A stretch of DNA of 64,000 nucleotides from Actinomycetota bacterium (GTDB lineage: Bacteria; Actinomycetota; UBA4738; HRBIN12), in assembly GCA_038249195.1 (NCBI GenBank), contig JBBRWM010000001.1, positions 75,489 through 139,488 on the forward strand. The letters run 5' to 3'. The position numbers and the translations under genes were made by a program. The notes below the pieces were generated by a model. That model was not told the DNA's origin. It did not search any database and saw only the letters and a list, made by a program, of their open reading frames with translations. Of the stretch, positions 15,684 through 34,836 are shown one piece after another; position 1 is the first letter of the stretch, and every line of letters begins with the position of its first letter.

Positions 15684-15756
15684 GGTCCCATCGTCTAGAG
15701 GCCTAGGACATCACCCTCTCAAGGTGAAGACACGGGTTCAAATCCCGTTGGGACTA
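15684..15756 (+). tRNA. tRNA-Glu (anticodon CTC)
   Basis: GGTCCCATCGTCTAGAGGCCTAGGACATCACCCTCTCAAGGTGAAGACACGGGTTCAAATCCCGTTGGGACTA. Anticodon loop CTCTCAA (CTC at 15718-15720). Strong similarity to bacterial tRNA-Glu. Confidence 0.85.
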
Positions 15757-15757
15757 C
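15710..15757. repeat. attL: 48-bp direct repeat formed by the tRNA-Glu 3' half (identical copy at 34789-34836; degenerate third copy at 36145-36184)
   Basis: atcaccctctcaaggtgaagacacgggttcaaatcccgttgggactac occurs at both positions with unrelated flanks. Confidence 0.85.
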
Positions 15758-15761
15758 TTCC

Positions 15762-15790
15762 GAAGCCGCAGGTCGGGGGCCTGCGGCTTC
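15762..15790 (+). terminator. Perfect 11-bp stem / 7-nt loop hairpin immediately after the tRNA-Glu/attL core (no U-tract)
   Basis: GAAGCCGCAGG tcggggg CCTGCGGCTTC. Confidence 0.35.
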
Positions 15791-15824
15791 GTCGTGGTCG
15801 GTGGTTGCTCGGTGTGGGTCGCAC

Positions 15825-15836
15825 ATGGGTCCCACA
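15825..15836. repeat. Candidate integrase arm-type site ATGGGTCCCACA (left end); two tandem copies at 34652-34675 (right end)
   Basis: The 12-mer occurs only near the two island ends. Confidence 0.4.
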
Positions 15837-15895
15837 TGCTGCGCCACAGCGCCAGGCGGACCCTCTCTGGTCGCCTGCCTGTCCACCAGGCGGAC

Positions 15896-16123
15896 CTAGC
15901 AGTGGATTACCATCTCACCCTCATGACAGAAGATGACCACCTGACCTCCTGTTTCAATCACATGGAAGCCCCGGTCCTTGGCCTCTTGAACCAACTCGCC
16001 TAGCGAGGCGTACTTCTCCACGTCGTCTCTCTTTCTGCGCACCACTCCACCCTGGGCCGCGGCGTCCGCGTTGAAGATCTGATCGATCCAGGCACTCATC
16101 GACGTTCTCCTCCCTATCCGCAA
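15896..16123 (-). CDS. Hypothetical small protein (75 aa) between the tRNA and the integrase
   Basis: ORF MRIGRRTSMSAWIDQIFNADAAAQGGVVRRKRDDVEKYASLGELVQEAKDRGFHVIETGGQVVIFCHEGEMVIHC. No recognisable family. Confidence 0.3.
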   Translation of the reverse strand: MRIGRRTSMSAWIDQIFNADAAAQGGVVRRKRDDVEKYASLGELVQEAKDRGFHVIETGGQVVIFCHEGEMVIHC

Positions 16124-16169
16124 TCTTCCTCGCCGTCAGCGTGACGGTAACGATTCGAAACGGCTCCCA

Positions 16170-17339
16170 CTACCCTGAGTCGAGCGACGCGCGCACGAGT
16201 GCGTCGATCGCGTCGGCAACCTGGCGCGAGACCTCCGGGTAGACCTCGACGTAGACGGTGTCCATCATGCGCGTCGACGTGTGGCCGAGCCTCGACGCCA
16301 CCGCCTTCATGTCCTTGGTAGCCGCGTAGGCGAGCGATGCGCCGGTGTGACGCAGCCACTCGGGGCGCACGCCCTCGACCCCGGCCTTCTCGCACGCGCG
16401 CTGCCAGATCGGGCGGAACACGTGCCGCCTCACAGGCCCTCCCCGCTCTCCCGAGAAGACCAGGCCTTCCAGGTTCGGATCCTCGGCGTCGACCAGCGGC
16501 GGGAACCGAAGGAGATGCTCGAGGAGCGGCGCCACGACGACGTCCGGCAGATCGACGACGCGGTTGGAGCGGGCGGTCTTCGGCGCGCCCCACTCGAAGC
16601 GCCCGTCGACCTCCACGAGCTTCTCATCGACGCCAACGGTTCGGCCCGACAGGTCGAGGTCGTCGCGCTTCACGGCGACCAGCTCCGACCAGCGCAGCGA
16701 CGAGTAGGCGCCCAGCAGCACGAAGGCTCGCCAGCGCGGTGGCAGCGCCTCGACGATCGCCGCGATCTCCTGCGGACGGAGGACGCGGATGCTCGAGCGC
16801 TCGGTACGCGGCGCCTCGATCCGCGCGGCCGGGTTCCGCCCGATCCGGTCGGCGTCCAGTGCGCTGTTCAGCATGACCCGGGCGAGCTTCAGGGCTTCCG
16901 CCGCCTGCCACGGGGAGCGCTGGGCGACCGTGGCGACCATGGCGCGGACGTCATCGCGCGTGATCCTCGCGAGCGCTGTGGCCCCGAGCGCGGGCTCGAC
17001 GTCCAGGCGCCACGTCCGCTCGTACTTCGACGCGGTGGACGGCGCGAGGCCTCCCGCCTTCGCGCGGACGAGCCAGGTCTCGTAGAAGTCCCTGAGGAGC
17101 ACCCGACCCGCGGCGGGATCGATGTAGTTGCCCCGGGTCTTGGACGACTCCGTGTCGTGCAGGAACCGCTCGGCGTCGGTGCGCCGCTGGAAGGACTGCG
17201 ACCGCTGGATCCCGTCGGGATCTCTCCAGCGGGCGATGTAGCCGAACGATCGGCCACTGCACTCCGGGCAGCTCCGGGCTCCGTCCGTGAGGCCGCGACG
17301 GCACACCCGGCGTCGGCACCGTTTCTGGATGCTCGCCAT
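16170..17339 (-). CDS. int: Tyrosine-type site-specific integrase
   Basis: ATG at 17339 (MASIQKR...). C-terminal catalytic region with R...HxxR...Y context (LRHTGASLAY...GHTSTRMMDTVY). The 497-aa ORF N-terminal extension is rejected. Confidence 0.85.
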   Translation of the reverse strand: MASIQKRCRRRVCRRGLTDGARSCPECSGRSFGYIARWRDPDGIQRSQSFQRRTDAERFLHDTESSKTRGNYIDPAAGRVLLRDFYETWLVRAKAGGLAPSTASKYERTWRLDVEPALGATALARITRDDVRAMVATVAQRSPWQAAEALKLARVMLNSALDADRIGRNPAARIEAPRTERSSIRVLRPQEIAAIVEALPPRWRAFVLLGAYSSLRWSELVAVKRDDLDLSGRTVGVDEKLVEVDGRFEWGAPKTARSNRVVDLPDVVVAPLLEHLLRFPPLVDAEDPNLEGLVFSGERGGPVRRHVFRPIWQRACEKAGVEGVRPEWLRHTGASLAYAATKDMKAVASRLGHTSTRMMDTVYVEVYPEVSRQVADAIDALVRASLDSG

Positions 17340-18055
17340 CAGGTCGCTCCACTGCCCTTGCTCTTGCGGAGCCGGTACGCCTCCTGCCGGGTGATCACGC
17401 GCAGTTGCGGGTGTGTGCTCATCGTCTCCTGGAGCCGATCGGCCTCGGCCTCGTCCCGGGCCACGTAGGGCACGCCGTGCTCGAGCTTCACCCGCACCTC
17501 GGCGCCCCACGGCCGCGCCGCCGTCGAGGTCTGCAGATCGCCCTCGCCCTCCCAGACGAAAATCGGACCGGGAAGCTTGGTCCGCTGCCGCAGCCGCGCC
17601 TCGCGTGCCGCGATGTAGTGCTCCCCGGGGGCCCCGCCCTCGCGGCGCCAGGATCGCGCCCACGGACGGGGAAGGTCGCCGGCGAGCGCGTCGATCGCTC
17701 GTTGTGCGGGCCGGGGGGCCGGTTCGGTCGGGCTGCGGACATCCCGGGTGAGGGTGATCCAGTCGCGGAAGGGGACCGTCCGCTCCCCCACGTCCAGACG
17801 CGCCGTCGCAGCGTCTCGGGTCGGCGCTCCGCCCGGGGTCCCCAGGATCGCGTGGACCGGCATCTCGAAGTAGGCGGCGATCGCGACGAGCTCCTCCACC
17901 TTGGCGTCGCGCCGACCCGATTCGGTCTCGGCGACGGTCTGGCGGACCCAGCGGAACCCCATCGCCTCCATCGCCTCCGCGAGTTCCGCCTGGGTCAGTC
18001 CGGCGGCTCGGCGCAGCGCACCGATGTTGTCCCCGACCAGCTCTGGAACCTTCAA
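17339..18055 (-). CDS. XRE-family HTH protein with a C-terminal domain of unknown function, translationally coupled to int
   Basis: RBS GAGGAGG, then TTG at 18055. HTH GALRRAAGLTQAELAEAMEAMGF. Its stop overlaps the int ATG (TGATG). Confidence 0.55.
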   Translation of the reverse strand: MKVPELVGDNIGALRRAAGLTQAELAEAMEAMGFRWVRQTVAETESGRRDAKVEELVAIAAYFEMPVHAILGTPGGAPTRDAATARLDVGERTVPFRDWITLTRDVRSPTEPAPRPAQRAIDALAGDLPRPWARSWRREGGAPGEHYIAAREARLRQRTKLPGPIFVWEGEGDLQTSTAARPWGAEVRVKLEHGVPYVARDEAEADRLQETMSTHPQLRVITRQEAYRLRKSKGSGAT

Positions 18056-18191
18056 CGACTCGCCTCCTCGCTCAACCCTGCGCGGCGATTCTCGCACATC
18101 TGTGCGACACCTTGCAAGCATGTCTTACCTAGCGTGATAAGCTGCACCGCGTCAAGAATCCTTCCCTGGTGTGATCGAAAGGAGGGGCACG

Positions 18192-18386
18192 TTGGGTCAA
18201 GAGCTGATGAGCCGGCGGGAGGTGGCGGCTTACCTCAGGGTTCCGGAGGCGACGCTCGCCCGCTGGGCCTACGAGAGGAAGGGCCCGAGGTTCTTCCGGG
18301 TCGGTCGCCACACGCGGTACCGCTTCGAGGACGTGGTCGGGTGGCTCGAGCGGAACGGCAGCGATCAACAGCGCAACGCGCCCTGA
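18192..18386 (+). CDS. Excisionase/Xis-like HTH DNA-binding protein
   Basis: AGGAGG, then TTG at 18192. MSRREVAAYLRVPEATLARWAYERKGPRFFRVGRHTRYRFEDVVGWLE is the classical excisionase-family HTH pattern. Confidence 0.55.
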   Translation: MGQELMSRREVAAYLRVPEATLARWAYERKGPRFFRVGRHTRYRFEDVVGWLERNGSDQQRNAP

Positions 18387-18489
18387 GCGAACGAGGCAGG
18401 CAGGTGCACCTGACGAGCGAGATATCCAAGGGAACGGCCGAGGCGCGAACGCCCCGGCCGCAGCGACGCGCTTCACGGGGAGGCGCGAC

Positions 18490-19395
18490 GTGAGCGACTC
18501 TACCGGCGGGGTCCGACATGGGAAGGCCGAGCGTTGGGCCCGCGACCTCTGGTGCGAAGCGATCGGTGACTCCACCCTGCCGAAGAGCGTCAGGCTCGTC
18601 GCCTTCGCGCTCGCCACGTTCATGAATCCCGAAGGAGTCGCGCGCCCCGCTCTCGCAACGCTCGCAGCCCGGGCCGGCGTGGCGCGATCGACGGCCGGTG
18701 AGGCCGTCGCCCGCATGATCGGCGACGGGTGGCTGGAACGGCTCGATGGAGGCGGCGGTTCGAGACGAGCCACCACCTACCGGGCGACACTCCCCGCCGG
18801 CAGCGTGGAGCCAGAGCGGCTGCGAACCGTCCGGTCTGGGCCGGACGGTTCCGAACCCGAACCGTCCGAAATCGGTCGCGAACCGTCCGGAACCGAGGCT
18901 CGAACCGTCCGGTCTGGGCCGGACACGAACAGACGAACAGATCCAACAGAGGGACGATCGCTCCGAGACAAGCTCACGGCGATCGGCGCCACTCCCGACG
19001 AGATCGCCGCTGTCTTGCGCCGTCATGAAGCCCGGCGAGACGGCGGCCTCCGCGTGAGTCTGCTGCCCGAAGTCCTCGAGACCGACCTGGCAGCCGCTCG
19101 GCGCCAGATGATCCGGGAGCAGCGCGATGCCGACGCCTACGCGGCGACACACGCGAGGACGACCGCGGAGGAGGCGATCGCGTTGATCAACCCCGCCTGG
19201 GCGCCGCTCCGCCAGCGGATCGTCGACCTGTTCCAGGAGGACGGAGGCGACTGCAGAGACCTCGACCGACTCAGGACGTGTGCGACCGACCTTGCCACAG
19301 TCGCAGAGAACGACCGCGCGGCCGGCTTGGCCGCGCTGCGGGCGTTCCGCCGACGGCGCCGACCCGCCGAGAAGCCGGAGACTGTGGATGCCTGA
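18490..19395 (+). CDS. Winged-HTH protein, replication-initiator-like, with an internal repetitive linker
   Basis: N-terminal wHTH (LVAFALATFMNPEGVARPALATLAARAGVARSTAGEAVARMIGDGWLERL). Peptide repeat RTVRSGPD x2 is encoded by DNA iterons. Confidence 0.5.
   Translation: MSDSTGGVRHGKAERWARDLWCEAIGDSTLPKSVRLVAFALATFMNPEGVARPALATLAARAGVARSTAGEAVARMIGDGWLERLDGGGGSRRATTYRATLPAGSVEPERLRTVRSGPDGSEPEPSEIGREPSGTEARTVRSGPDTNRRTDPTEGRSLRDKLTAIGATPDEIAAVLRRHEARRDGGLRVSLLPEVLETDLAAARRQMIREQRDADAYAATHARTTAEEAIALINPAWAPLRQRIVDLFQEDGGDCRDLDRLRTCATDLATVAENDRAAGLAALRAFRRRRRPAEKPETVDA
18823..18924. repeat. Iteron-like array: four direct and one inverted copy of GAACCGTCCGG, plus two copies of the palindrome-containing CCGGTCTGGGCCGGAC, inside the rep-like gene
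   Basis: Copies at 18823, 18858, 18879 and 18901, inverted at 18841. Spacing is 35/21/22 bp. Confidence 0.6.
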
Positions 19396-19610
19396 TCGCA
19401 GAGGCCTCCAGGGCTCAGAGCCGATCGAGGGCTCCGCCGTGACCACCTCGTCGCCCACAGGGGTAGGGCGGGTCGGAAACTTCATGACCGAGGCCGGGCG
19501 CACACCTCGCGCCTCCCAACTTCGCACGCGCCCGAAACTGGCGATTTCAGCCGGTCAGTTTTCGCCCGAAACTCAATCGAGCCGGTCACGAAACTCAGTC
19601 CGCTGGTTCC

Positions 19611-20453
19611 TCAGGAATGACTCGGTCCAGCACCGGATCGCTCGAGCACGCGTTGGAGTCCGTCAAGCTCATCTGTCGGGATCGCCTCTACGCCGACGTC
19701 GGAGAATAGCTCCAGCGACTCCCGGTAGATCTCCTCGTGCCGAGCCGACGGCTCACCCATCACGGCGCAGATCCTGATGATCCCCGCGCTCTGGTCAGCA
19801 TCGGAAGCGACCCATGCGACATGATCACGTTGCTTGATGACTTCCTCGGGTCTCTTCACCGAGAAGGAGAGCGGCTCCACAGCCACGGCCAGCTCAGACT
19901 TCAGGGTCCGCATGATGCCAACGTCGAGGCTGTTAGCCCCGTGTCGCACCGGGATCTGCGGGCGATCCACGATCCTCTCGCGTGGCACCCCCCAAGCGCG
20001 TAGACCTTCCATGAGTATGTTCCGCACCTTGGCGCGGCCAGGGGCAGGAGCGGGGGCCGGGAGCCCCCCGACGAATTCTCGGTAGAGCTGATCAAGCGTC
20101 TGCGAAGCCTCCACCACGAGGACGGGCCTGGGGGGGGTGAACTGCATCTGGAAGCCGAACTGCCCCGAGAGCTCCTCCAGACGATCCTTGGTCAACGCCT
20201 CCGGTAGGGTGTCAATGGCGGGTTGCCCGAAGTCCTCTGGGAAGCGCAGCCGGAAGTCCGCAAGGGCGCGCTCCGCCGCCCGCGGATCGAGGTCGGGCGC
20301 GATAGCGGCGATCTTCTTGCGGAAGGCCTTGGCGAACCGGTGATGCACATGTTGACCGCTCTCGGCGGACATCACGATCCCGACGTTGATCGCCTCGTCC
20401 CTGACCGGGTGCGGGACGAATCTCACCACCGAGTACAGGTAGAGATCGCTCAT
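19611..20453 (-). CDS. DUF3037-like protein
   Basis: N-terminus MSDLYLYSVVRFVPHPVRDEAINVGIVM matches the DUF3037 signature as I recall it (Y.Y..lR.vP...r.E.iNvG). Confidence 0.55.
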   Translation of the reverse strand: MSDLYLYSVVRFVPHPVRDEAINVGIVMSAESGQHVHHRFAKAFRKKIAAIAPDLDPRAAERALADFRLRFPEDFGQPAIDTLPEALTKDRLEELSGQFGFQMQFTPPRPVLVVEASQTLDQLYREFVGGLPAPAPAPGRAKVRNILMEGLRAWGVPRERIVDRPQIPVRHGANSLDVGIMRTLKSELAVAVEPLSFSVKRPEEVIKQRDHVAWVASDADQSAGIIRICAVMGEPSARHEEIYRESLELFSDVGVEAIPTDELDGLQRVLERSGAGPSHS

Positions 20454-20465
20454 GTCATCACTCCA

Positions 20466-21251
20466 TCAACCTCCGAGAATGGGCGTTAGCACGCCGTCGA
20501 GGGCAGCTCGCGACGTCACCAGGTATCGGCCAAGGGCATTCATCTCGTCCTCGGGAACCGCCCACTCGGCTGGCACGCCAGACACGGTCCCCAGTATGGC
20601 CAGATCGTCGACAGCGGCGACGGCCTGTAGGGCCCCGGCTAGGTCCTCTGAAGTGATGACCGTGCTCAGCGGCTCGAACGCTACGGGCGTCATCGACCCA
20701 GCCTTCCCATCTACGTCGGGTCCCCAGCTGTGATCGAAGCAGTGACCGTGGTCGTACCCGAGGATGTCCACGGCACCTCCGGGTGTGCTCTTGGAGATGA
20801 GGTGCTCGGGCTTTCCGTCCGTGTTCCGGGTCCACGTGTACAGCACGACGAGCCGAGCGAGGTCGCCGCGATTGCGCGCCGAGCGGCACGTCTCGGCGCT
20901 GGGACTGAGGACGCCTTCGATCCAGATCCGCCCGAAGGCGGCGCCAGGGGAAGCGTTGGTCAGCTCGGGAACCTCCCTCTTGACCCAATCGACAATCTCA
21001 GGGGCGATGGCGACGACATCGCCGTCGGGGACGGGGGCGCCGAACAACCGGGCCAAGCGAGCCACGACGAGTTCGTTCACGAGGATCCGATCCTGCGAAC
21101 CAGAGCTGGACTGGGGGTTCCCCCGGAGCTTTACTGTGCGCCGCACGCCGTCGTCGAAGTCCATCAGGACGGCGGCCGACCCACCCCCTCCAGCTTTCTG
21201 CAGAAACGTCGTCGCCGCGGGCCGTGTGGCCTCACCGGTTTCAGCATCCAC
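20466..21251 (-). CDS. HipA-core (CtkA/HipC-like) Ser/Thr kinase domain protein, 261 aa
   Basis: LVVLYTWTRNTDGKPEHL...GYDHGHCFD resembles the HipA C-terminal catalytic and activation motifs. No HipA N-terminal domains. Starts 15 nt after the hsdR stop. Confidence 0.55.
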   Translation of the reverse strand: MDAETGEATRPAATTFLQKAGGGGSAAVLMDFDDGVRRTVKLRGNPQSSSGSQDRILVNELVVARLARLFGAPVPDGDVVAIAPEIVDWVKREVPELTNASPGAAFGRIWIEGVLSPSAETCRSARNRGDLARLVVLYTWTRNTDGKPEHLISKSTPGGAVDILGYDHGHCFDHSWGPDVDGKAGSMTPVAFEPLSTVITSEDLAGALQAVAAVDDLAILGTVSGVPAEWAVPEDEMNALGRYLVTSRAALDGVLTPILGG

Positions 21252-21266
21252 GTCCGCAGCCCACGA

Positions 21267-24263
21267 CTACTTGCCCTGGGTCCCACGCAGGCGGTCGTAG
21301 ACCTCTTTCAGGTAGAAGCCCTTGATGGTGGCGGCGAAGTCGGGGTTGTCCATGATCTGGCGGAAGATCTCGTCGTTCGCCCCCATGCGCTCGATGATCG
21401 TGGCGTCGAAGACCTTGTCGAAGCCGAACTTGAAGTTCTCGATCGGGTTCGCGGTCGCCTGGTCGTGCAGGTCGGGGTTGGCGATCCACTCCTCCCGGAA
21501 CTGGTCGAACAGGAGCTGGTCGGCGTCCCCGAGGTTCAAGCCGAACCGTTCGTTGAGCAGGTCCACGATCGTGGAGAGGTGCTCGGACTCGGGCTCGTGC
21601 TGCTTGCCCACTCCCCCGCCGGTGACTGCCGGTGGCAGCTCGCCGCCTTCCCCGAGACCCAGCGAGATGTCGCCTTCGAAGGTCTTTTCCGTCCGCAGGT
21701 GCGTGAGCTCGACGTCCGAGCCGAGGTCGAGGCCTCCCTCACCCCGCCGAGGCAGGCGTGAACGGAGCGCCTTCGTGTAGACGTAGGTCTTCTCCAGGCT
21801 CGGGTCGGTCACCTGCACAATCTGGCCGAGGAACGAGTAGAGGTTGACGAACCGCTTGAGGATGTCCCGGTACTCGCGCTCCGCTTCCTCGTCGACGATC
21901 TTGAAGCGGTCCACCGCAGGGTCCAGGAACGCGTAGAGCTTGCCGTGATCGAGCGACGAAGCGTCTGACGAGAAGAACACCTGCGCGAACGCCTCGATCT
22001 CGTCCTCGCGGAGCACGTCGTACTCCCAGAGCCGATCGCGCGCATCCCAAAGCGCGTTCGGGTCGGTCGGCTCGGTGATCGTCGTCTCGTAGAACGGCGT
22101 GAACGCCTTCTGGATCTCTTCGGCGTCGTTCCTAAAGTCCAGGACGAAGGTGTCGTCCTTCCCCGGCGCGATCCGGTTCAGCCGTGAGAGCGTCTGGACG
22201 GCCGCGACTCCTTCGAGCTTCTTGTCAACGAACATCGTGTGCAGCAGCGGCTGGTCATAGCCCGTCTGGAACTTCTCCGCGACGACCATCACCTGGTACT
22301 CATCGGTGTCGAACTCGTTTCGGGTTTGGGTGTCCGGGAAGGGGTTCATCCAGGACTCGGTGTAGTCGATGCCCTCGTCGATCACCTTGCCGGAGAACGC
22401 CACGAGGGTCTTGACGTCGGTGTAGCCCTTCTCTGCGATGTAGGCGTCCAAGGCGCGCTTGTAACGGACGGCGTGCAGCCGGGAGGCTGTCACGACCATC
22501 GCCTTCGCCCGACCGCCGATCTTCTTGGCGGTGTGGGCACGGAAGTGCTCGACGACGATCTCAGCCTTCTGGGCGAGGTTGTAGGGATGCAAGCTCACGT
22601 AGCGCGCCACGGCCGCGACCGCCTTGGCCGGATCGAACTCCGGGTCCTCGGTCACCGCCTTCTCCACCCGCCAGTAGGTGTCGTAGGTCACGTAGGTCTT
22701 CAGCACGTCGAGGATGAAGCCCTCCTCGATCGCCTGACGCATCGAATAGAGATGGAAAGGCTCGAGCTTGCCGTCAGCGTTCTTCCGGCCGAACAACTCC
22801 AGGGTCTTGGCCTTCGGTGTCGCGGTGAACGCGAAGAAACTCAGGTTCGGCTGGTGGCCCCGCGCCGCGATCTGGGCGGCGAGGCGATCCTCGGCGTCGG
22901 GGAGCACGCCGCCCGACTCGGCGGCCTCGGCCTCGCTGAGCTCATCGTCCTCGCGGCCGGCGCCGAGGACGGCCTTCAGGTCCTTGGCGGCCTCGCCGGT
23001 TTGGGAGGAGTGCGCCTCGTCGACGACGACGGCGTAGCGCCGGTCACCGAGCTCCCCAACGAGGTCCTGGACGAAAGGGAAGGTCTGGAGCGTGCACACG
23101 ACGATCAGCGCCTGATCGCTTTCGAGCGCGTGGGCGAGGTGCTCGGACTTGGTGCCCGACCCGCCGATCTTCTCGACCATCCCGTGCTTGTGCTCGAACT
23201 GATAGATCGTGTCCTGGAGCTGGTGGTCCAACACGATCCGGTCAGTTATCACGATCACCTTGTGAAAGACCTTCTCGTCGTCGGCGTCGTGCAGGGTCGC
23301 CAGGCGATGAGCTAGCCACGCGATCGTGTTGGACTTCCCCGAGCCGGCTGAATGCTCGACGAGGTAGCGGTGGCCGGGTCCTTCTGCGCGGGCGTCGGCT
23401 TCGAGCTTCAGCACGGCGTCCCACTGGTGGAAGCGGGGGAAGATGACCCGGCTCGCCTTCTTCTTCGCGACCGAGGATCCCTCAGGCGGCCGCTCCACAT
23501 GGATGAAGCGCGCGAGGATGTCCAGCCAAGGATCGCGCGCCCAGACCTGCTCCCACAGGTAGGCGGTGCGGTGGCCCGCCGGGTTGGGAGGGTTCCCGGG
23601 GCCCCCGTCACTCCCCCGGTTGAAGGGCAGGAACTGGGTCTTCGCGCCGGCAAGCTGGGTGGTCATATAGACCTCGTCGGGATCCACAGCGAAGTGGACG
23701 ACGGCGCGCTTGCCGAGCAGCGTGTCGCGCGGATCGCGATCCTCCCGGTACTGCTTCTTCGCGTGTTCCACGGTCTGGTTCGTGAGCGGGTTCTTCAGCT
23801 CAGCCGTCGCAACCGGCAGACCGTTGACGAGCAGGCAGAGGTCGAGCTCGTTCTCATGGGCGGGTGAGTAGCGGAGCTGACGGGTGACGGTGAGCCGGTT
23901 CGCCTCGAAGTTGGTGACGAGGTCTGGCGTGAGGCCGTGGGCAGGTTTGAAGTAGGCAAGGCGGATCGTCACGCCGTGGTCGGTCACTCCGTGTCGCAGG
24001 ACATCGATCGTCCCGTGTTGGTCGATCTGCTTCGCGACGCGGTCGGCGAACTTCTCGCGGGCGGCATCCTCGCCGCCATGGAGCTGGACGAGGCGCGCCC
24101 ACTCTTCCGACTGCGTGGCGGTCACGAAGTCGAACAGCTCTGCGAGGTCGAGAGCGAGGTTCTGCTCATAGTGAGCGTCGGCTCCCGATGTGTAGCCGCC
24201 ATCACCGGTGAGTGACAGCTCGATCGCGTCCTCGAAGGACACCTCTTTCGCGACTTCCGGCAT
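21267..24263 (-). CDS. hsdR: Type I restriction enzyme R subunit
   Basis: 998 aa. ResIII/helicase motifs (VEHSAGSGKSNTIAW, VVVDEAHSSQTGE) and the C-terminal HsdR domain. Confidence 0.9.
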   Translation of the reverse strand: MPEVAKEVSFEDAIELSLTGDGGYTSGADAHYEQNLALDLAELFDFVTATQSEEWARLVQLHGGEDAAREKFADRVAKQIDQHGTIDVLRHGVTDHGVTIRLAYFKPAHGLTPDLVTNFEANRLTVTRQLRYSPAHENELDLCLLVNGLPVATAELKNPLTNQTVEHAKKQYREDRDPRDTLLGKRAVVHFAVDPDEVYMTTQLAGAKTQFLPFNRGSDGGPGNPPNPAGHRTAYLWEQVWARDPWLDILARFIHVERPPEGSSVAKKKASRVIFPRFHQWDAVLKLEADARAEGPGHRYLVEHSAGSGKSNTIAWLAHRLATLHDADDEKVFHKVIVITDRIVLDHQLQDTIYQFEHKHGMVEKIGGSGTKSEHLAHALESDQALIVVCTLQTFPFVQDLVGELGDRRYAVVVDEAHSSQTGEAAKDLKAVLGAGREDDELSEAEAAESGGVLPDAEDRLAAQIAARGHQPNLSFFAFTATPKAKTLELFGRKNADGKLEPFHLYSMRQAIEEGFILDVLKTYVTYDTYWRVEKAVTEDPEFDPAKAVAAVARYVSLHPYNLAQKAEIVVEHFRAHTAKKIGGRAKAMVVTASRLHAVRYKRALDAYIAEKGYTDVKTLVAFSGKVIDEGIDYTESWMNPFPDTQTRNEFDTDEYQVMVVAEKFQTGYDQPLLHTMFVDKKLEGVAAVQTLSRLNRIAPGKDDTFVLDFRNDAEEIQKAFTPFYETTITEPTDPNALWDARDRLWEYDVLREDEIEAFAQVFFSSDASSLDHGKLYAFLDPAVDRFKIVDEEAEREYRDILKRFVNLYSFLGQIVQVTDPSLEKTYVYTKALRSRLPRRGEGGLDLGSDVELTHLRTEKTFEGDISLGLGEGGELPPAVTGGGVGKQHEPESEHLSTIVDLLNERFGLNLGDADQLLFDQFREEWIANPDLHDQATANPIENFKFGFDKVFDATIIERMGANDEIFRQIMDNPDFAATIKGFYLKEVYDRLRGTQGK

Positions 24264-25537
24264 CAGGCCACCGCTCCGGTCCTCGAGAAGTCCCCTGAAA
24301 CAGCGCGAGTGATAAGAGCCTGGCGGCGCTCCGCCAATAGCCGGATCTGGTCCTTCAGCTGCCCAACAAGCAAACGCATCCGATCCCGCTCCGCATCGAG
24401 AGTCGCTACGACTTCCTCTTGCTCTGGCGGCGATGGATAGGGGAATCGGTGCGCTCGCAACTGCTCACGTGTGAGATGAACGATCGTGCTTTGGTTGCCC
24501 TCGACAGCGAACACGTCGCGGCCAGCGGCGGCGCGGAGACAGTACATCAGGAAGCGCGTCGAACCCAGGTGGCGCGGTCGCACTCGATGAACAGCCTTCT
24601 GGAAGAAGCAGGGCTCTACCTCACCCTTCCAGATGGCGGCCCTCCCCACCTCGCCTCCCTCACAAACCAATAGGTCCCCGGGGCGGAGCTCGCATCGACG
24701 TCGATCGAGCGCGTCGAAGTGCATCGAGTCGAGTTGATCTAAATCGAGGCGATCCCACTGCACGTTGGTGTTCCTGAGATACGGATACTGTTCAACGCCG
24801 GCACTAGCCTCAGGATTCACCATCTTCCCAAGCGTCACGTCGAAGTTGGCGCTCACCCTTTGCACGCTCCAGGACGTCGGAATCTCGCCGAGCCAGTCGA
24901 GTCCGGAGTCCTTCCTGGGTCCCTTCACGAGACCGCCCGAAATCAGATGGAAGACAGATGCCTCGAAGCGCTCTTCAAGCAGGGCAGCCACGTGCTGCTT
25001 CTTGTCAGTAAGCGCGTCGATGAGTGCGGTCTCGGCATTGAGATAGTCGGCGATGGCCCGCTGCCCAGGAAGAGAATGAACGGGAACCTCAATCGCAGCG
25101 ACCGCGTCGGCCCGAAGCCCGAAGCGGGTGACTCCACTCGCGGCAACCTCCTCCTGCGATCGCACCAACGTCGAGGCCATGCACCAGTACAGGAACTTGG
25201 GGATAACTCGCGACGGATCCGGCCTGATCAATGACAGGTGGTAGCCGCAGAGGACGCGATCCATGGGCTCGTCGATGAACGCCGGGACGCCGATGTCGTC
25301 GGCGGTCTCAGAGTCCTTCGTGATCAAGATGTCCCCGGGTTCAACCTGGAACTGTCGAATCTGGTCCTGAGTGGCAGTTGCGTCCATGAACTCGAGCTCG
25401 GACGTGATGAGCGGGTTGTAGTAGACATCCGTGTAGTTGCATAGGTGGACCGCCTGCTCCCCCTCCACGCTCTTCTTGTCGACATTGCTCGGTTTGACGG
25501 TGGCGAGATACTTCAGCTTCCTCGTCGCGTAGGTCAC
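24263..25537 (-). CDS. hsdS: Type I restriction-modification specificity subunit
   Basis: 424 aa with two target-recognition-domain halves separated by conserved coiled-coil repeats (…LIDALTDKKQHVAALLEERFEA… / …LVGQLKDQIRLLAERRQALI…). Confidence 0.85.
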   Translation of the reverse strand: MTYATRKLKYLATVKPSNVDKKSVEGEQAVHLCNYTDVYYNPLITSELEFMDATATQDQIRQFQVEPGDILITKDSETADDIGVPAFIDEPMDRVLCGYHLSLIRPDPSRVIPKFLYWCMASTLVRSQEEVAASGVTRFGLRADAVAAIEVPVHSLPGQRAIADYLNAETALIDALTDKKQHVAALLEERFEASVFHLISGGLVKGPRKDSGLDWLGEIPTSWSVQRVSANFDVTLGKMVNPEASAGVEQYPYLRNTNVQWDRLDLDQLDSMHFDALDRRRCELRPGDLLVCEGGEVGRAAIWKGEVEPCFFQKAVHRVRPRHLGSTRFLMYCLRAAAGRDVFAVEGNQSTIVHLTREQLRAHRFPYPSPPEQEEVVATLDAERDRMRLLVGQLKDQIRLLAERRQALITRAVSGDFSRTGAVA

Positions 25538-27528
25538 TCCGTCACCTCGCGGAGCAACTCTTGGATCTCCGCTTCAAGCGCCTTGATCTCCGCGTCGATC
25601 TCTTCGAGCGGCCGCGGCGCAACGTACTTGTAGAAGTGCCGCGTGAGCGGGACCTCGTAACCGAGCTTCGTCTTCGAAAGGTCTACCCAGGCGTCCGGCA
25701 CGAACTGGAGCACCTCGGTGTTCATGTAGCTCTCGATCGCCGCTCGGTATGGCTCCGAAGCCAAGTGCTCCACGGGGTCCGTGTCCCAGTCGACCTCGAC
25801 GTCGGGGAGCGGGACATTCTCGCTGTCGCGGACATCTGGATCTGCTTCAGGCGCTCCCTTCTTGTTCGTTACCACCGGGGCGTCGTGGTCACGCACGCTG
25901 AGCACGTCCCATAGCGCCTTCTCGATCGGCTTCGGCATGGCGCCGAGCTTCTTCGCGACCACCGTCTTGTCGGTCTCGGCGATGCCTTCGAGCGAGGCGA
26001 TCCGTTCCAGGAGATCGGTCTGCTCCTGTTCGCTGAGTTTCGTCCACGCCTTCTCGGCCGTGAGGCGCTCGGCCGTATCCGCCGTGACCTCCCAACGGAG
26101 CCGAAGCGGCCGCTCCACCGTGATCCGCATGAAGCCGAAGGTGTGATTCGGCATGAGCTTCACACGCTCGCCCTCGGCGAGTTCGCCATAGAGGCGTGTG
26201 ATCTCGTCGATCTGCTTATCGGAGATGCGCTTGCGTTTCTCGCCCAGGCTCTTGGGCATCTTCTCCCAGTACTCGCGGGCATCGACCAGCTGGACTTTGC
26301 CGCGGCGTTCGGGCGCCTTGCGGTTCGTCACGATCCAGAAGTAGGTGGAGATGCCGGTGTTGTAGAAGAGCTGGTCAGGAAGGGCCACCACGGCCTCCAG
26401 CCAGTCGTTCTCGATGATCCAGCGCCTGATCTCCGACTCGCCCGAGCCGGCACCGCCGGTGAACAGCGGTGAGCCGTTGAAGACGATCGCGAGCCGGCTC
26501 CCGCCCTTCTCTGGCGGCTTCATCTTCGAGATCATGTGCTGGAGGAACAGGAACGAGCCGTCGTTGATCCGTGGGAGCCCGGCTCCGAACCGCCCCTTGA
26601 ACCCGAGGTCCTCGGCCTCGGCACGGACCTCGTCTTCGACCTTCTTCCACTCCACACCGAAGGGCGGGTTCGCGAGCATGTAGTCGAAGCGCCAGTCCTC
26701 GAGGCCGTCTTCGGTGAAGGAGTTCCCCCGCAAGATGTGGGAGGCGTCCTGGCCCTTCAGCATCATGTCGGAGCGGCAGATCGCGTAGGTCTCCGGGTTG
26801 AGCTCCTGGCCGAAGACCTCGAGACGAGCGGCGGGGTTCAGGGCACGCAGGTGCTCCTCGGCGAACGAGAGCATCCCCCCGGTCCCACAGGCAGGGTCGT
26901 AGAGCGTGCGGACCGCTCCGGCCTTGCGGAGCGCGTCGTCGTCCTCGATGAACAAGAGGTTCACCATGAGGTGGATAACCTCGCGCGGAGTGAAGTGCTC
27001 TCCGGCGGTCTCGTTGGACTGCTCCGAGAAGCGCCGGACGAGCTCCTCGTAGACGTAGCCCATCTCCGTGTTGTCCACCGCGTCGGGGTGCAGGTCGATC
27101 TCGAGGAACTTGCCGACCACCATGTACAGGAGGTTCGCCTTGTCCAGGCGCGCGATCTGGGTCTCGAACCCGAAGTTGTCGATGATGTCGCGGGCGTTCT
27201 GGCTGAACCCGGCGATGTAGCTCCGCAGGTTCGGCGCGATGTTCGCCGGGTCCCCGACGAGCTTGCGGAAGTCGAGTTTCGACGTGTTGAAGAACTGCTG
27301 CCCGGCCTCGTGCGCGAGCACCTTCTCGACCATCTCAGGCGCGCCCTTGGTGGTCGAGGCTTTCTTGAGGACCTTCTCCTTGGTTGGTTCCAGCACGCAG
27401 TCGAGCCGCCGGATCACAACGAGCGGCAGGATCACGCGCCCGTACTCGGACTGCTTGTAGTCACCCCGGAGCAGGTCAGCGACCGACCAGATGAAGTTGA
27501 CCTTCTCGGAGAAGTGGCTCGGTGTCAT
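25534..27528 (-). CDS. hsdM: Type I restriction-modification DNA methyltransferase subunit
   Basis: N6-adenine methylase motif NPPFGVEW. HsdM N-terminal domain. Confidence 0.9.
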   Translation of the reverse strand: MTPSHFSEKVNFIWSVADLLRGDYKQSEYGRVILPLVVIRRLDCVLEPTKEKVLKKASTTKGAPEMVEKVLAHEAGQQFFNTSKLDFRKLVGDPANIAPNLRSYIAGFSQNARDIIDNFGFETQIARLDKANLLYMVVGKFLEIDLHPDAVDNTEMGYVYEELVRRFSEQSNETAGEHFTPREVIHLMVNLLFIEDDDALRKAGAVRTLYDPACGTGGMLSFAEEHLRALNPAARLEVFGQELNPETYAICRSDMMLKGQDASHILRGNSFTEDGLEDWRFDYMLANPPFGVEWKKVEDEVRAEAEDLGFKGRFGAGLPRINDGSFLFLQHMISKMKPPEKGGSRLAIVFNGSPLFTGGAGSGESEIRRWIIENDWLEAVVALPDQLFYNTGISTYFWIVTNRKAPERRGKVQLVDAREYWEKMPKSLGEKRKRISDKQIDEITRLYGELAEGERVKLMPNHTFGFMRITVERPLRLRWEVTADTAERLTAEKAWTKLSEQEQTDLLERIASLEGIAETDKTVVAKKLGAMPKPIEKALWDVLSVRDHDAPVVTNKKGAPEADPDVRDSENVPLPDVEVDWDTDPVEHLASEPYRAAIESYMNTEVLQFVPDAWVDLSKTKLGYEVPLTRHFYKYVAPRPLEEIDAEIKALEAEIQELLREVTE

Positions 27529-27646
27529 GGGGGTTCAGGGCTCCGTGTTGTCGTCAAGGAACAATGGCCGGAGCTTATCCCAGCTCTGTCAGCCGGTCCG
27601 GCAGGGCCGTCGGCCGTCTGTCAGGGCTTCGGACTACGGTTCAGTG

Positions 27647-29386
27647 ATGAATAGCGGGAGCGCCGTGGATAAGGGAAGCCTAGCCCGGGTTCGATCCGCC
27701 CTCGCCGGCGCCTCGGCGCTTCACGAAACTTCAGCCGCCCTGCGCGCTAGCTGGACTGATCAGGAGCCGGACCCCGCCGAACCGTTCATCTGGGCGTTCG
27801 ACTACCACTACCTTGAATCCAGCCAGCGGCTCGCTCGCGGGGCTTCAGGGCCGTGGGGACCGATGCTCGAGATGGATGGCCGCATCTGGCCACCCCCGCT
27901 CCCGACTGTCGCCGACGAACACTTGGCCGCTTGGGCGGATGCGGCCGCTGCGCTGTCAGATCTTCCCCTCGGCGCAGCCAGGCTCCACGACCTGCTCTGG
28001 GAACGCCGCTGGGGCGAACGGCCGGACCTCCACGCTCGATCGGCAGTCGACGCCTACACCGCGCTGATCCCCGAGTCCGAATCGCTCGACTCGGCGCACC
28101 ACATCGCTCGCTCGATGGAACTGGCGATAGCGGTTGGCGACCGCGAGAGAGAACGCGAGGTAGTTGCGCTCAGCCTGGCGGCGGCTCGACGGTCGCTCGA
28201 AGCCTCGACCCCGGAACCCGGAGTCGCGCTGAGACATGCCGAAGCGCTTCTCACGCTCCCGCGCGAGCGGCAACCTGCCGAAGTCGACGAACTCCTGGAG
28301 GGCGCGGCCAGCATCTATGCCGACGATCCGTGGATCGTCGAGACGGTGTTGGACCTCAAGGTCGAACGATCGACGGATCCAGATGCCGTTCGCGCACTGC
28401 GATTGCAGCAGGTCAACACATGGCGAGCCGCTGCAAGCGAGGCGGCAGGCTTGGTGAAGCTCAGCCACCTCCAGCGTGCTCTCGAGCTGGCTCGATTGCA
28501 TAACCTCGGATTCCTGATTGACGAGGTCCGACTCGAGCTTCAGGCGATCTCTGAGGAAGACCTGGACCTTAAGGAACTTTCAGCCGAAGTCACCGTCCCG
28601 GCAGACGAGGTGGAGAGGTACATCGAGAGGCTCGTCGGGGGGAGCTGGCAGGAAGCGTTGACCGCCATCGGTGCGGTCGGCCCGCCAAGCGGCCAGGTCG
28701 AGAAGAACATCGCGGATATCGAGCAGCAGATGAAGGACTTTCCGCTCTCACACCTCTTCACGCGGACCCTGCTCGGACCCGACGGCATCCCGACCAAGAG
28801 CGCTATGAGTGAGGAGGAGCATAAGGCGGAGGCGTTGATCCGGCAGGAACTGTTCGGCATCCAGGTCGAGAGTCATTTCAGAGCTGAAGCCTTGGACCGT
28901 GCCAGGGAACGCTACGGGCAGCCGTCGGCGGAGGAGCTGGCCGAGTTCTTCACGACTCCGCTCATCACCGCCGAGATCGCCGAGCGCTTCGCTCGGTCGC
29001 TGGATCTGTACTGGAGCGGCCACTTCGATGAGGCCGCTCTGGTCGCCCTGCCGCGCATCGAAGCTGTCCTCCGCAATGTTGCCCGAGAAGGAGGCTTCGC
29101 GATCGTCCGAGAGCCCCAACCGACCAAACCCGGCGGTGTGAAGCCGCTCGGAGAGATCCTCCGTCTCCTGGAAGGCGGGTATCCGGAGTCGTGGCGAAGG
29201 TACTTGCTGAACGCGCTCGTGGAGCCGACAGGGTTCAATCTCAGGAACGTCCACCTTCACGGGGTGCGGGCTGCCGCCACCCGCGAAGAAGCGGCCATCT
29301 TGATACAGATCGCCTGCCATTTGCGACTCATCCGAAGCGGTCCGTCGGACGACGAGACGAGTCCACACCACCCTGCGCCGGCCTAG
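27647..29386 (+). CDS. Large hypothetical protein (579 aa), mostly alpha-helical, with a C-terminal 'RN..HG' motif (DUF4209-like?)
   Basis: GTG/ATG at 27644/27647. C-terminus ...YLLNALVEPTGFNLRNVHLHGVRAAATREEAAILIQIACHLRLI. Divergent from hsdM across a 118-bp gap. The ORF's 5' extension of 52 aa is rejected. Confidence 0.5.
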   Translation: MNSGSAVDKGSLARVRSALAGASALHETSAALRASWTDQEPDPAEPFIWAFDYHYLESSQRLARGASGPWGPMLEMDGRIWPPPLPTVADEHLAAWADAAAALSDLPLGAARLHDLLWERRWGERPDLHARSAVDAYTALIPESESLDSAHHIARSMELAIAVGDREREREVVALSLAAARRSLEASTPEPGVALRHAEALLTLPRERQPAEVDELLEGAASIYADDPWIVETVLDLKVERSTDPDAVRALRLQQVNTWRAAASEAAGLVKLSHLQRALELARLHNLGFLIDEVRLELQAISEEDLDLKELSAEVTVPADEVERYIERLVGGSWQEALTAIGAVGPPSGQVEKNIADIEQQMKDFPLSHLFTRTLLGPDGIPTKSAMSEEEHKAEALIRQELFGIQVESHFRAEALDRARERYGQPSAEELAEFFTTPLITAEIAERFARSLDLYWSGHFDEAALVALPRIEAVLRNVAREGGFAIVREPQPTKPGGVKPLGEILRLLEGGYPESWRRYLLNALVEPTGFNLRNVHLHGVRAAATREEAAILIQIACHLRLIRSGPSDDETSPHHPAPA

Positions 29387-29423
29387 GCCTAGCCCAGACG
29401 GGAATCGGCGGTGTATACGTCTC

Positions 29424-29960
29424 GTGATGAGAGCGGACGCGACGGCGCGCGGGAAGGAGTGCCTTGCGCTTCTCGAGCAGGCCGGCCGCGATGCGGGTTG
29501 GACCGTGGTGCGGGAGTACCCGGTACCCGGCGGGAGAGTCGACCTTGTCTGGACCTGGCAGCCCGATTCGGCACTGGCCGGTGCCCCCGGACCGATCCCG
29601 ATCGTGGGCTTCGAGGTCGAGTCCAGTTGGCGCACCCGGCAGCACGTCAAGGGCGACCTCGTCAACCTGGCGGCCCTCCAGGCTGCGCTTGGAGTGATCG
29701 TCTTGCTTGGCCTCGATGAGGGCGACGGCTTGCTCCCGCACGCCGAGGAGCTGGTCGAGCGGTGGCCCTGGCGGATAGTCGTGTGGACCGAACGCGACGT
29801 CGAAGGACTCGTGAACGGCCTCGGCAACCAACCATTGAGTTTCGCGGCTGGCTGCGCAAGCGCGGGACCATCGACCGAGGACGATCCTGCTTCGACGACG
29901 ACGAGCCACGCGGGGGGTGGCGTGACGCCCACACACGGTCGTGTCCCGTCAAGTGGTTGA
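29424..29960 (+). CDS. Hypothetical protein with a possible PD-(D/E)xK-like core, 3' end abutting or interrupted by the IS256 insertion
   Basis: GRVDLVW...IVGFEVESSWRTRQHVKGD. The C-terminal 50 aa are low-complexity. The IS target duplication lies inside this tail. Confidence 0.35.
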   Translation: MMRADATARGKECLALLEQAGRDAGWTVVREYPVPGGRVDLVWTWQPDSALAGAPGPIPIVGFEVESSWRTRQHVKGDLVNLAALQAALGVIVLLGLDEGDGLLPHAEELVERWPWRIVVWTERDVEGLVNGLGNQPLSFAAGCASAGPSTEDDPASTTTSHAGGGVTPTHGRVPSSG

Positions 29961-31322
29961 GATTCGTCACCGCCATCCTCGCTTCCTAGGCGATCGCAGC
30001 GAGTAGTTCCTTGGGGTCCTCACCTCCCTCGAGCTCGGCGGCCTTGGCCATGGATCCGATCGAGAAGTAGCGGCGATCGGCCACCTGCCATTCGTCGTCT
30101 TGTTCAGCGAGCAGCGTCCCGACCATGCGCATCAACGAGTCGAGCGTCGGGAAGATCCCGATCACTCGGGTGCGCCGCTTGACCTCCTTGTGCAGCCGCT
30201 CGATCGGGTTGGTCGAGTGCAGCCGACGCCGGTGTTCCCGGGGGAAGTGCATGTGGGCCAGCACGTCTTCTGCGGCGTCTTCCAGCAGCTCCGCGGCCTG
30301 GGGGAACCTGGGCTCGAGCATCCGTGCGACCTCGTGCAGCTGGGTCATCGCCGAGGCGTGATCGGGGGCCACGAACACGGTGCGCACCACCGCGGCCACG
30401 GTGTCTTGAGCACCCTTGGGCACCGTGGACAGCAGGTTCCGCATGAAGTGAACCCGGCATCGCTGCCAGGTGGCCCCGGTGAGCACCTTCGCGATCGCCT
30501 GGCGCAGTCCCTCGTGCGCATCAGAAATCACCAGACGCACCCCTTTCAGCCCTCGCTTGATCAACGAGCGAAGGAACGACGTCCAGAACTGATGGTCCTC
30601 GCTCTGGCCGGTGGCCGCACCCAAGATCGTGCGTTGGCCTTCGGCGTTCACCCCGATCGCGACGACCGTGGCGACCGAGGTGACGCGGCCGGCCTGACGC
30701 ACCTTGTGGAAGGTGGCGTCCAACCACACGTAGGGGTGCTCGCCTTCGATCGGGCGCGTGAGGAAGTCCTTCACCTCGCCATCTAATGACTTGCAGATCC
30801 TGGAGACCTCCGAGCGTGAGATCCCATCGATCCCCAGGGCTTTGACGAGGTCATCGACCTTGCGGGTGCTCACGCCCTTGACGTAGGCCTCGACCACCAC
30901 CGCATGCATCGCCTTCTCGGCTCGCCGGCGGGGTTCGAGCAGGCTCGGGAAATAGGCCCCGGCACTCACCTTGGGGATCTTGAGCTCGATCGTGCCCGCC
31001 CGGGTGTCCCAGCGCCTGGTGCGGTAGCCGTTGCGGTAGGCGACCCGCTCGGAGCTGCGTTCATACGGCCCAGCACCGATCTGGGAGGAGACCTCGGTCT
31101 CCATCACGGCTTGGGCGAGCACCCGCACGCCTTCACGAAGCAGATCCACGTCGTCTTCCTCGAGAAGCTTGCCGACGAACGACGTGATGTCCATCCTGTT
31201 GGTGGCCATCGTCCCTCCCCATCTGACTGTCCTGTCGATGAGGATGGCGGTGGCCATCTATGTCACGGGGATTTCCACCCCGGATCTCCACTTCGAAAGT
31301 CCACCACTTCTCGGGACGCTAA
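29937..31322. mobile_element. IS256-family insertion sequence with imperfect terminal IRs and a 9-bp target-site duplication CCCACACAC
   Basis: Left IR ggtcgtGTCCCGTCAAGTGGTTGAGATTCG. The right end reverse-complements to GTCCCGAGAAGTGGTGGACTTTCG. TSD at 29928-29936 and 31323-31331. Confidence 0.8.
29986..31209 (-). CDS. tnp: IS256-family (mutator-type) transposase
   Basis: ATG at 31209 (MATNRMDITSFVGKLLEED...). DDE region ...VWLDATFHKVRQ...LVISDAHEGL. Confidence 0.9.
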   Translation of the reverse strand: MATNRMDITSFVGKLLEEDDVDLLREGVRVLAQAVMETEVSSQIGAGPYERSSERVAYRNGYRTRRWDTRAGTIELKIPKVSAGAYFPSLLEPRRRAEKAMHAVVVEAYVKGVSTRKVDDLVKALGIDGISRSEVSRICKSLDGEVKDFLTRPIEGEHPYVWLDATFHKVRQAGRVTSVATVVAIGVNAEGQRTILGAATGQSEDHQFWTSFLRSLIKRGLKGVRLVISDAHEGLRQAIAKVLTGATWQRCRVHFMRNLLSTVPKGAQDTVAAVVRTVFVAPDHASAMTQLHEVARMLEPRFPQAAELLEDAAEDVLAHMHFPREHRRRLHSTNPIERLHKEVKRRTRVIGIFPTLDSLMRMVGTLLAEQDDEWQVADRRYFSIGSMAKAAELEGGEDPKELLAAIA

Positions 31323-31603
31323 CCCACACACTTCGGCAAGTACCGGGCTCTATACGACTGGCTGACGGCCAATCAGCGGATCGCGTGCCAGCGACCTTCG
31401 GCCAGGTGGAGGAGATTCTGGGGTTCCCTCTCCCACGATCCTCAAGAGACCACCCGGCGCACTGGTCTGGGTACGAGGGCAGCGCAGTCGCGAGAGCGAT
31501 CGCTGACGCAGGCTGGCGAGCCAGGAACGTGAACCTGGCCGCCGAGACCCTCGTCTTCGAGCGCGTGACCTGAGGTGGATCGCCTCAGACGCGGCCCTGC
31601 TGA

Positions 31604-32449: not shown

Positions 32450-32452
32450 CCG

Positions 32453-33568: not shown

Positions 33569-33576
33569 CTTGCCTC

Positions 33577-33598
33577 CTTGCCTCACCTTGGCAAGGGT
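33577..33598. promoter_or_regulatory. Inverted repeat TTGCC-N12-GGCAA overlapping the RBS of the wHTH gene, with further GGCAAGG direct repeats to 33682
   Basis: cttgcctccttgcctcaccttggcaagg and ggcaaggcttgtccagtctagacaaggcttgcc (contains GTCTAGAC). Confidence 0.35.
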
Positions 33599-33823
33599 AC
33601 ATGTATCGGGCAAGGCTTGTCCAGTCTAGACAAGGCTTGCCTGTCTCACGTGCGCGTGTCAGGGTCAGGCAATCTGGCAAGGTATCGGGTTCGCGCCTCG
33701 TTTCACTCTTTCGCCCGTTTCACCGCGGCGGTGAATATGGCCGATCCAGTGAAACGTGGCGCCTCCTGGTCGCGGGCTACCCTTGCGGGCGTTGGGGCGT
33801 CACCTGGGAGGTGGGACAGACCG

Positions 33824-34645: not shown

Positions 34646-34788
34646 CCATGAATGGGTCCCACATGGGTCCCACACGCGGACGCGAACCGGCGCGAAACGG
34701 CGCCACCCGACGCCAACCCTCAACCGCTCGTTTCCCCTGCTCAGCGGCCATTCAACTCCATCACCGCTGGTAGGCGAACCGCCCTCCG

Positions 34789-34836
34789 ATCACCCTCTCA
34801 AGGTGAAGACACGGGTTCAAATCCCGTTGGGACTAC
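34789..34836. repeat. attR: second copy of the tRNA-Glu 3' 48-mer
   Basis: Identical to 15710-15757. Confidence 0.85.

Follow-up and report, generated by a model that had tools for sequence, protein, structure and literature searches.

On the minus strand of a 64,000-nt stretch of an Actinomycetota genome (assembly GCA_038249195.1, contig JBBRWM010000001.1, positions 75,489 to 139,488; the whole stretch is called the window here), a gene for a short HipA-type kinase and a gene for a DUF3037 protein follow directly on the hsdM, hsdS, and hsdR genes of a type I restriction-modification (RM) system. Judged by sequence comparison, this gene pair is a divergent member of a known, experimentally validated defence system, the HipA_2 kinase + DUF3037 pair catalogued as PDC-M66 and described as DS-6 or HipAD. 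The type of system is already catalogued and validated, and the locus reveals no new kind of defence. The reading preferred here, at a probability of about 0.75, is that of an autonomous HipAD-type module, in which a kinase toxin restrained by the DUF3037 protein would be released on infection and abort it, and which would be co-transcribed with the restriction genes but independent of them.

DS-6, renamed HipAD, is a validated kinase + DUF3037 anti-phage system in E. coli (DefensePredictor, PMC13092281; the source for HipAD is Brenes & Laub, 2025, as cited there). A D139A mutant of its kinase, DS-6A, loses defence, and AlphaFold 3 predicts a complex of the A and B proteins plus a weaker binding of DNA (PMC13092281). 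DUF3037 is strongly associated with HipA-like kinases, the combination being PDC-M66; in the Retron-Sda1 operon, deletion of HipA abolishes defence and deletion of DUF3037 is toxic, and the reverse transcriptase and non-coding RNA are dispensable (PMC12548924). The genes from which PDC-M66 was originally defined lay inside BREX, DISARM, or type I RM systems. The original prediction, made from the window sequence alone, had held that standalone kinases of this kind have no established partner and that the combination with DUF3037 is not a characterised system. The first statement is out of date, a DUF3037 partner having been shown in both DS-6/HipAD and Retron-Sda1; the second gives way to PDC-M66, which defends on its own as DS-6/HipAD and also within the Retron-Sda1 operon. 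The proposed kinase-based toxin or abortive-infection role is still the best reading, by analogy with these homologues, from which toxicity, neutralisation, and kinase-dependent defence would carry over to the window pair.

In the defence libraries, the two proteins matched only the two PDC-M66 models. Both PADLOC matches are weak and partial, the kinase matching PDC-M66A with an E-value of 5.4e-4 (17 bits, 129 of 270 model positions) and its partner matching PDC-M66B at 1.2e-8 (33 bits, 127 of 281 positions). The DS-6 proteins, taken from the supplement of PMC13092281, were also compared directly. A BLASTP alignment of the window kinase and DS-6A covers 244 residues (E 9e-11, 23% identity), with D145 of the former opposite the DS-6A D139 in a common W-x-x-N-x-D loop, D167-H-G opposite I-D-H-N, and V-P-A-E-W opposite I-P-E-E-W; hhalign gave 96.8% for this pair of proteins. 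DS-6A is itself a strong HipA_2 member (258 bits). For the partner and DS-6B, hhalign gave 97.8% over residues 1–210, reaching the first strands of the C-terminal domain. The sizes are similar, at 261 and 280 aa in the window and 249 and 275 aa in DS-6, and the kinase gene comes first in both.

The kinase had been expected to carry a HipA_C domain. The broader assignment held, since it has the CtkA/HipA-core fold and aligns significantly with DS-6A, but the correct family is HipA_2 (PF20613), and neither HipA_C nor HipA_N gave a Pfam match at E ≤ 1. No NCBIfam model matched the kinase or the DUF3037 protein. A first search of 5.8 billion proteins returned only six relatives, including the kinase itself under its public gene call (P0001, 232 aa). 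With a profile built from these six, the number rose to 3478 representative proteins at E ≤ 1e-3, of which 1277 passed E ≤ 1e-10; nearly all of the 3478 are 240–300 aa long. Because so few relatives were found directly and so many by profile, the kinase belongs to a sparse, outlying clade of a large family. Some family members seem to exceed 340 aa or are located within long open frames (P0126, 509 aa; P0082, P0085, P0145, and P0150, 344–354 aa; locus L008, 429–3278), which hints at extra fused domains, an alternative being the long open frames typical of high-G+C DNA.

The public 232-aa call starts at M30 and drops the Gly-rich ATP-binding loop. This loop (AGGGGS, containing G23-G24-S25) lies upstream of M30 and in alignments is conserved in the relatives P0002 and P0005 and family-wide, and for that reason the 261-aa open reading frame (ORF) starting from GTG at 21251 is the better call. 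The key residues of the kinase so numbered are G23-G24-S25, K41, E60, N127, W140, the catalytic D145, D167-H-G, P227, and W230. In the 62 kinases found encoded beside DUF3037 genes, K41 is present in 61, D145 in 60, and D167 in all; E60, N127, W140, P227, and W230 are also conserved, and the G23-G24-S25 loop largely so. The window kinase has every family-conserved catalytic residue, including the ATP-binding Lys, the catalytic Asp, and the Mg-binding Asp, so that the absence of catalytic motif residues, which the original prediction had named as a possible refutation, was not what the alignment gave.

A structural comparison, also suggested there, pointed the same way. In a confident AlphaFold2 model of the kinase (pLDDT 82, pTM 0.85), the best matches in the Protein Data Bank (PDB) by Foldseek were CtkA (E 2.4e-7, TMq 0.61), PI4KII-alpha, and HipA, and at the level of the model the CtkA/HipA-core fold holds. 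A sequence-only PDB search with the kinase profile gave just an insignificant 28-residue match to HipA.

The partner was correctly called as a DUF3037 protein, with a Pfam match (PF11236) of 58.3 bits against a cut-off of 22.6 over residues 7–128; the first search of the same 5.8 billion proteins gave four relatives. It has two domains, DUF3037 at about residues 1–128 and a restriction-endonuclease-like fold of about 140 aa at about 140–280. Across 67 DUF3037 proteins, an N-terminal motif of Y7, P14, R18, E20, N23, and G25 is nearly invariant, and D177, the expected first acidic position of the C-terminal domain, is conserved in 63. The (D/E)xK motif is absent from this domain in the 67 proteins, position 193 being Q, H, N, or E with no conserved Lys, and a role as an active PD-(D/E)xK nuclease was rejected for lack of the ExK motif. 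The nuclease-like fold may instead serve in binding or sensing. Pfam DUF1829, the name given to the C-terminal domain in DS-6B, matched neither the window partner nor DS-6B itself.

The pairing of the two genes recurs widely. Loci were gathered from one genome per species, metagenomes, viral contigs (which gave one locus), and contigs encoding database matches, with a DUF3037 profile built from a 10-sequence subset, an 18-sequence alignment being too divergent. After removal of near-duplicates there were 71 DUF3037 loci besides the window. Of these, 63 have 400 nt or more of upstream sequence, and 59 of the 63 have a kinase ORF immediately before the DUF3037 gene, in the same orientation and ending at its start; the four without one are truncated or partial DUF3037 matches. 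The hosts include Chloroflexota, Actinomycetota, Acidobacteriota, Bacillota, Planctomycetota, WPS-2, and a Nitrosopumilaceae archaeon. The recurrent kinase linkage that the original prediction had proposed to look for is thus present, and supports the kinase and DUF3037 gene as a conserved module. In the nearest relative from NCBI (locus L001, 8114–12177; kinase 46% identical), they are part of a tight five-gene run of wHTH, NTP_transf_8, kinase, DUF3037, and a 151-aa ORF, in which the NTP_transf_8 gene overlaps the start of the kinase gene. Such a run could represent a larger variant of the system.

In the window, five tightly packed ORFs (27528–19611, minus strand) lie in the order hsdM-hsdS-hsdR-kinase-DUF3037 (Table 1). 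HsdM, HsdS, and HsdR are all present, intact, and co-oriented, and by Pfam, PADLOC, and NCBIfam matches make up a type I RM system. The hsdM and hsdS genes overlap by 4 nt and hsdS and hsdR by 1 nt; the kinase ORF begins 15 nt after the hsdR stop and the DUF3037 gene 12 nt after the kinase, on the same strand, with GGAG 7 nt upstream of its ATG. Both gaps, like the 261-aa length of the kinase, are exactly as first described, and the span then given, 20466–24263, takes in hsdR and the kinase and leaves the DUF3037 gene outside. Co-transcription of hsdMSR and the pair, also part of that description, is plausible from the two short gaps. No terminator-like site was found between hsdR and the pair by a scan that has little power in such genomes, and the promoter/terminator scan, with one promoter-like site against 0.7 expected, was uninformative. 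A decaying remnant was considered and rejected, both ORFs of the pair being intact with their conserved residues.

The kinase ORF is also in frame with hsdR, with a single TAG plus 15 nt between them (21252–21269), and read-through would yield an HsdR-kinase fusion. Since the corresponding gap at the analogous locus L029 is 17 nt, the shared frame is probably a coincidence.

The idea that the module is coupled to restriction fared less well. Of the 41 other loci with 3 kb or more of flanking sequence, just 3 have type I RM genes immediately next to the pair, and the other 38 have none; the searches for hsd genes, by phmmer and jackhmmer with the proteins of the window as seeds, missed the EcoEI-type HsdR of locus L089, so the linkage is possibly undercounted. 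With K for the kinase and D for the DUF3037 gene, the window has the order M-S-R-K-D. L029 has R-K-D, with gaps of 17 and 10 nt, an HsdR 36% identical to that of the window, and a pair 28% identical; L031 has K-D-M-S; and L089, a Phycisphaeraceae-type cluster, has R-IVP-S-K-D-M, where IVP is a 23S_rRNA_IVP-domain gene. The three RM-linked loci compare with roughly 0.1–0.6 expected by chance in 564 kb of flanking sequence, a rough figure that depends on an assumed background density.

The four RM-linked pairs, the window's included, are at most 29% identical to one another, and the closest relatives of each are pairs without RM linkage. The window's nearest relatives, L002 (57%), L088 (45%), and L001 (41%), have no RM genes. 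Other pairs are found on a resolvase/relaxase element (L085), on plain chromosome without mobile-element genes nearby (L087), and beside integrases and HicB (L088). The idea that the window and L029 inherited hsdR and the pair together was rejected, given the identities of 36% for HsdR and 28% for the pair and the closer non-RM-linked relatives of both pairs. As the RM-linked pairs diverge and have closer kin elsewhere, repeated insertion is a better description than a co-evolved unit. On this rough accounting, adjacency to type I RM genes is recurrent and commoner than chance, as the screen for embedded genes that defined PDC-M66 had implied; it has arisen repeatedly and is not required. In the preferred reading, the pair is a self-contained mobile cassette that has repeatedly landed inside or beside operons of this type; at the window locus itself, a functional link with restriction is possible.

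As an autonomous module, the pair might work as follows. To judge by the spacing, all five genes would be transcribed as one operon from the hsdM side. In the uninfected cell, the DUF3037 protein would bind the 261-aa kinase and keep it harmless, as its homologues suggest. A phage cue would then free the kinase to phosphorylate an essential host target, leading to growth arrest and an aborted infection. The restriction enzyme would form a first line of defence and the kinase pair an independent second one. A number of observations weigh against this account. The only Pfam match of the kinase, to HipA_2, scores 22 bits, under the 27-bit cut-off, and PADLOC itself might not call the system, with its weak A match covering about half of the model. 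Sequence identity with the systems that have been tested is low, at 23% for the kinase, and in BLASTP only the first 42 residues of the partner align with DS-6B. The 15-nt gap leaves the pair no room for an intergenic promoter of its own, unlike a classical self-regulated toxin-antitoxin pair, and there may be more than hitch-hiking behind the recurrent RM adjacency.

This last point is the starting point for a different explanation, in which the pair is a restriction guard like PrrC in EcoprrI: HsdMSR would silence the pair, or be monitored by it, and the kinase would fire when a phage anti-restriction protein disables restriction. The pair abuts same-strand type I RM genes, each time in another gene order (the window, L029, L031, and L089), and does so more often than the rough chance expectation; the L029 gaps are nearly identical to those in the window, where the 15-nt gap would force shared transcription; and the definition of PDC-M66 itself came partly from genes embedded in type I RM systems. 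If a guard were at work, capture beside type I RM genes, independently in four or more lineages, would be the product of selection for a circuit that frees the kinase when HsdMSR is lost or inhibited. It would be a kinase-based counterpart to PrrC-EcoprrI, and in the window the shared transcript and the hsdR-kinase frame would link expression levels. Such a circuit is nonetheless unlikely, given the 38 loci without RM genes, the divergence among the RM-linked pairs, whose closer kin are not RM-linked and which fit repeated insertion, and the phage defence that DS-6 and the Retron-Sda1 pair provide in E. coli with no cognate RM system.

Two further explanations start from the surroundings of the pair and from its second protein. 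The pair could chiefly stabilise the 19-kb island on which it lies (described below) by post-segregational killing, with no phage defence. It is on an att-bounded element near an integrase and an excisionase-like HTH gene, several relatives (L002, L085, L088) adjoin integrases, resolvases, or relaxases, and DUF3037 deletion is toxic in a homologue. Addiction of this kind, which is compatible with the autonomous defence module, is improbable as the chief function, since homologues give measurable kinase-dependent phage protection, the island cargo is defence-themed (the type I RM genes and a PDC-S39-like gene), and the L087 pair is chromosomal with no mobile-element genes near. The DUF3037 protein might otherwise be a nuclease effector acting through its C-terminal domain, with the kinase as sensor or regulator. 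The conserved D177 would fit, but the missing (D/E)xK motif, the variable position 193, and the lack of a conserved Lys would not; nor would the homologues, where loss of DUF3037 brings toxicity instead of having no effect and where defence depends on the catalytic Asp of the kinase. A nuclease effector is accordingly very hard to credit. The HipAD-type module independent of restriction is left as the preferred reading.

Table 1. Positions of the five-gene cluster and of the features delimiting the island that carries it.
Feature	Position in window	Strand	Description	Matches and remarks
hsdM	25534..27528	−	664 aa methyltransferase; first gene of the cluster	Pfam N6_Mtase 204 bits, HsdM_N 99.6 bits; PADLOC MTase_I 921 bits
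hsdS	24263..25537	−	424 aa specificity subunit	Pfam Methylase_S in two stretches; PADLOC Specificity_I 246 bits
hsdR	21267..24263	−	998 aa restriction/translocase subunit	Pfam HSDR_N, SWI2_SNF2, ResIII, T1R_D3-like; PADLOC REase_I 107 bits
Kinase gene	20466..21251	−	261 aa, GTG start; HipA_2-type short Ser/Thr-kinase-like	Predicted toxin
DUF3037 gene	19611..20453	−	280 aa, ATG start	Predicted neutraliser or sensor
tRNA-Glu(CTC)	15684..15757	+	3' 48 nt (15710–15757) are the left attachment-site repeat	ARAGORN
Tyrosine integrase gene	16170..17339	−	389 aa	Phage_integrase, Phage_int_M, SAM_3
XRE-type HTH gene	17339..18121		Excisionase-like; beside the integrase gene	Gene calls on identical Logan contig L003
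Right attachment-site repeat	34789..34836	+	Exact 48-nt copy of the tRNA-Glu 3' end

In NCBIfam, HsdR matched TIGR00348 with 173 bits, under that model's cut-off. A tRNA-Glu gene, with an integrase gene adjoining, marks one border of the region that holds the cluster; the 3' end of this tRNA gene recurs exactly at the opposite border, and G+C content within is 0.62–0.66 as against about 0.70 outside. The cluster is therefore cargo of a 19.1-kb integrative island (15710–34836) inserted at tRNA-Glu. A degenerate third copy of the 48-nt repeat (36138–36185, 85%) is found 1.35 kb past the second, which suggests that 34837–36185 is the remnant of an older tandem insertion. Just inside both ends of the island (15815–15839 and 34653–34677) is a 25-nt motif, TGGGTC[G/C]CACATGGGTCCCACA; these could be arm-type binding sites for the integrase.

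The rest of the island has other cargo. A 631-aa ORF (27491–29386, plus strand), divergent from hsdM and overlapping it at the 5' end, matches PADLOC PDC-S39 (56.6 bits, E 4.7e-16) and, weakly, DUF4209, and could be the island's third defence gene. An IS256/Mutator-family transposase gene (29986–31257, minus strand, 426 bits) lies between it and the right-hand cargo. Further cargo genes encode two winged-helix-like proteins and an ERCC4-domain protein. The ERCC4-domain gene (33554–34645) contains one copy of a 300-nt direct repeat (33837–34136), and the other (39680–39979, 85% identity) is outside the island in an ORF at 39655–40488, which looks like a chromosomal paralogue. A winged-helix-like ORF of 301 aa (18490–19395, plus strand) contains an exact 24-nt direct repeat with its copies 78 nt apart (18823–18846 and 18901–18924) and a related 18-nt repeat at 18817 and 18873.

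The locus extends HipAD/PDC-M66 to a very divergent clade of high G+C content (about 70% in the window) that was nearly missed by standard thresholds, because the Pfam score is below cut-off, the PADLOC matches are weak, and the public gene call lacks the ATP-binding loop. It also documents that the cassette was captured beside type I RM genes on four or more separate occasions, with differing gene orders. The partner's restriction-endonuclease-like domain, with one conserved Asp and no complete active site, is a lead on sensing or binding, and the 19-kb mobile island is a compact natural test case for cooperation between RM and an abortive kinase.

Among named systems, the canonical HipBA type II toxin-antitoxin system was rejected on size, domains, and partner. 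The E. coli kinase shares the superfamily fold (Foldseek matches 3dnv, 3tpv, and 2wiu), the spacing of about 22 residues between the catalytic and Mg-binding Asp, and, by analogy, a toxin neutralised by a partner protein. HipA is however about 440 aa long, against 261 aa for the window kinase, which matches neither of the HipA_N and HipA_C domains of Pfam; hsdR rather than a HipB-type HTH antitoxin gene is upstream of it, and its partner is downstream and unrelated. CtkA of Helicobacter pylori (PDB 3akk) is the best structural match, a minimal HipA-core kinase of similar size, but is just 13% identical. It is described as a secreted pro-inflammatory kinase, and we know of no DUF3037 partner for it. 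PrrC in EcoprrI is a parallel in arrangement, an effector of abortive-infection type within or next to a type I RM operon and co-oriented with it. PrrC, however, is an ABC-ATPase and anticodon nuclease, almost wholly confined to type I RM systems and functionally reliant on the enzyme, whereas the kinase pair is mostly standalone, and the 3 in 41 loci beside type I RM genes are far from a near-obligate location.

The remaining two systems are closer. The Retron-Sda1 pair is the same two-domain system, likewise a cassette captured inside another defence operon, and its genetics mark the kinase as a toxin that defence requires and DUF3037 as the neutraliser; but there the host operon is a type III retron and here a type I RM system. 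Its DUF3037 protein is reported to have C-terminal similarity to a retron DNA-binding protein (PMC12548924). DS-6/HipAD differs in that it is prophage-associated and standalone, whereas the window pair is at the 3' end of hsdMSR on a tRNA-Glu island, and in the sequence of the kinase, the window's being 23% identical, below the HipA_2 cut-off, and from a very sparse sub-clade. The two systems share a kinase-first gene pair, with a HipA_2 kinase of about 250 aa and then a DUF3037 protein of about 275 aa; a kinase with the GGS loop, the Lys, the W-x-x-N/G-x-D catalytic loop, D-H-G, and P-x-E-W; a partner that aligns over about 200 residues; and matches of both proteins to PDC-M66A and PDC-M66B, which are weak and partial for the window pair.

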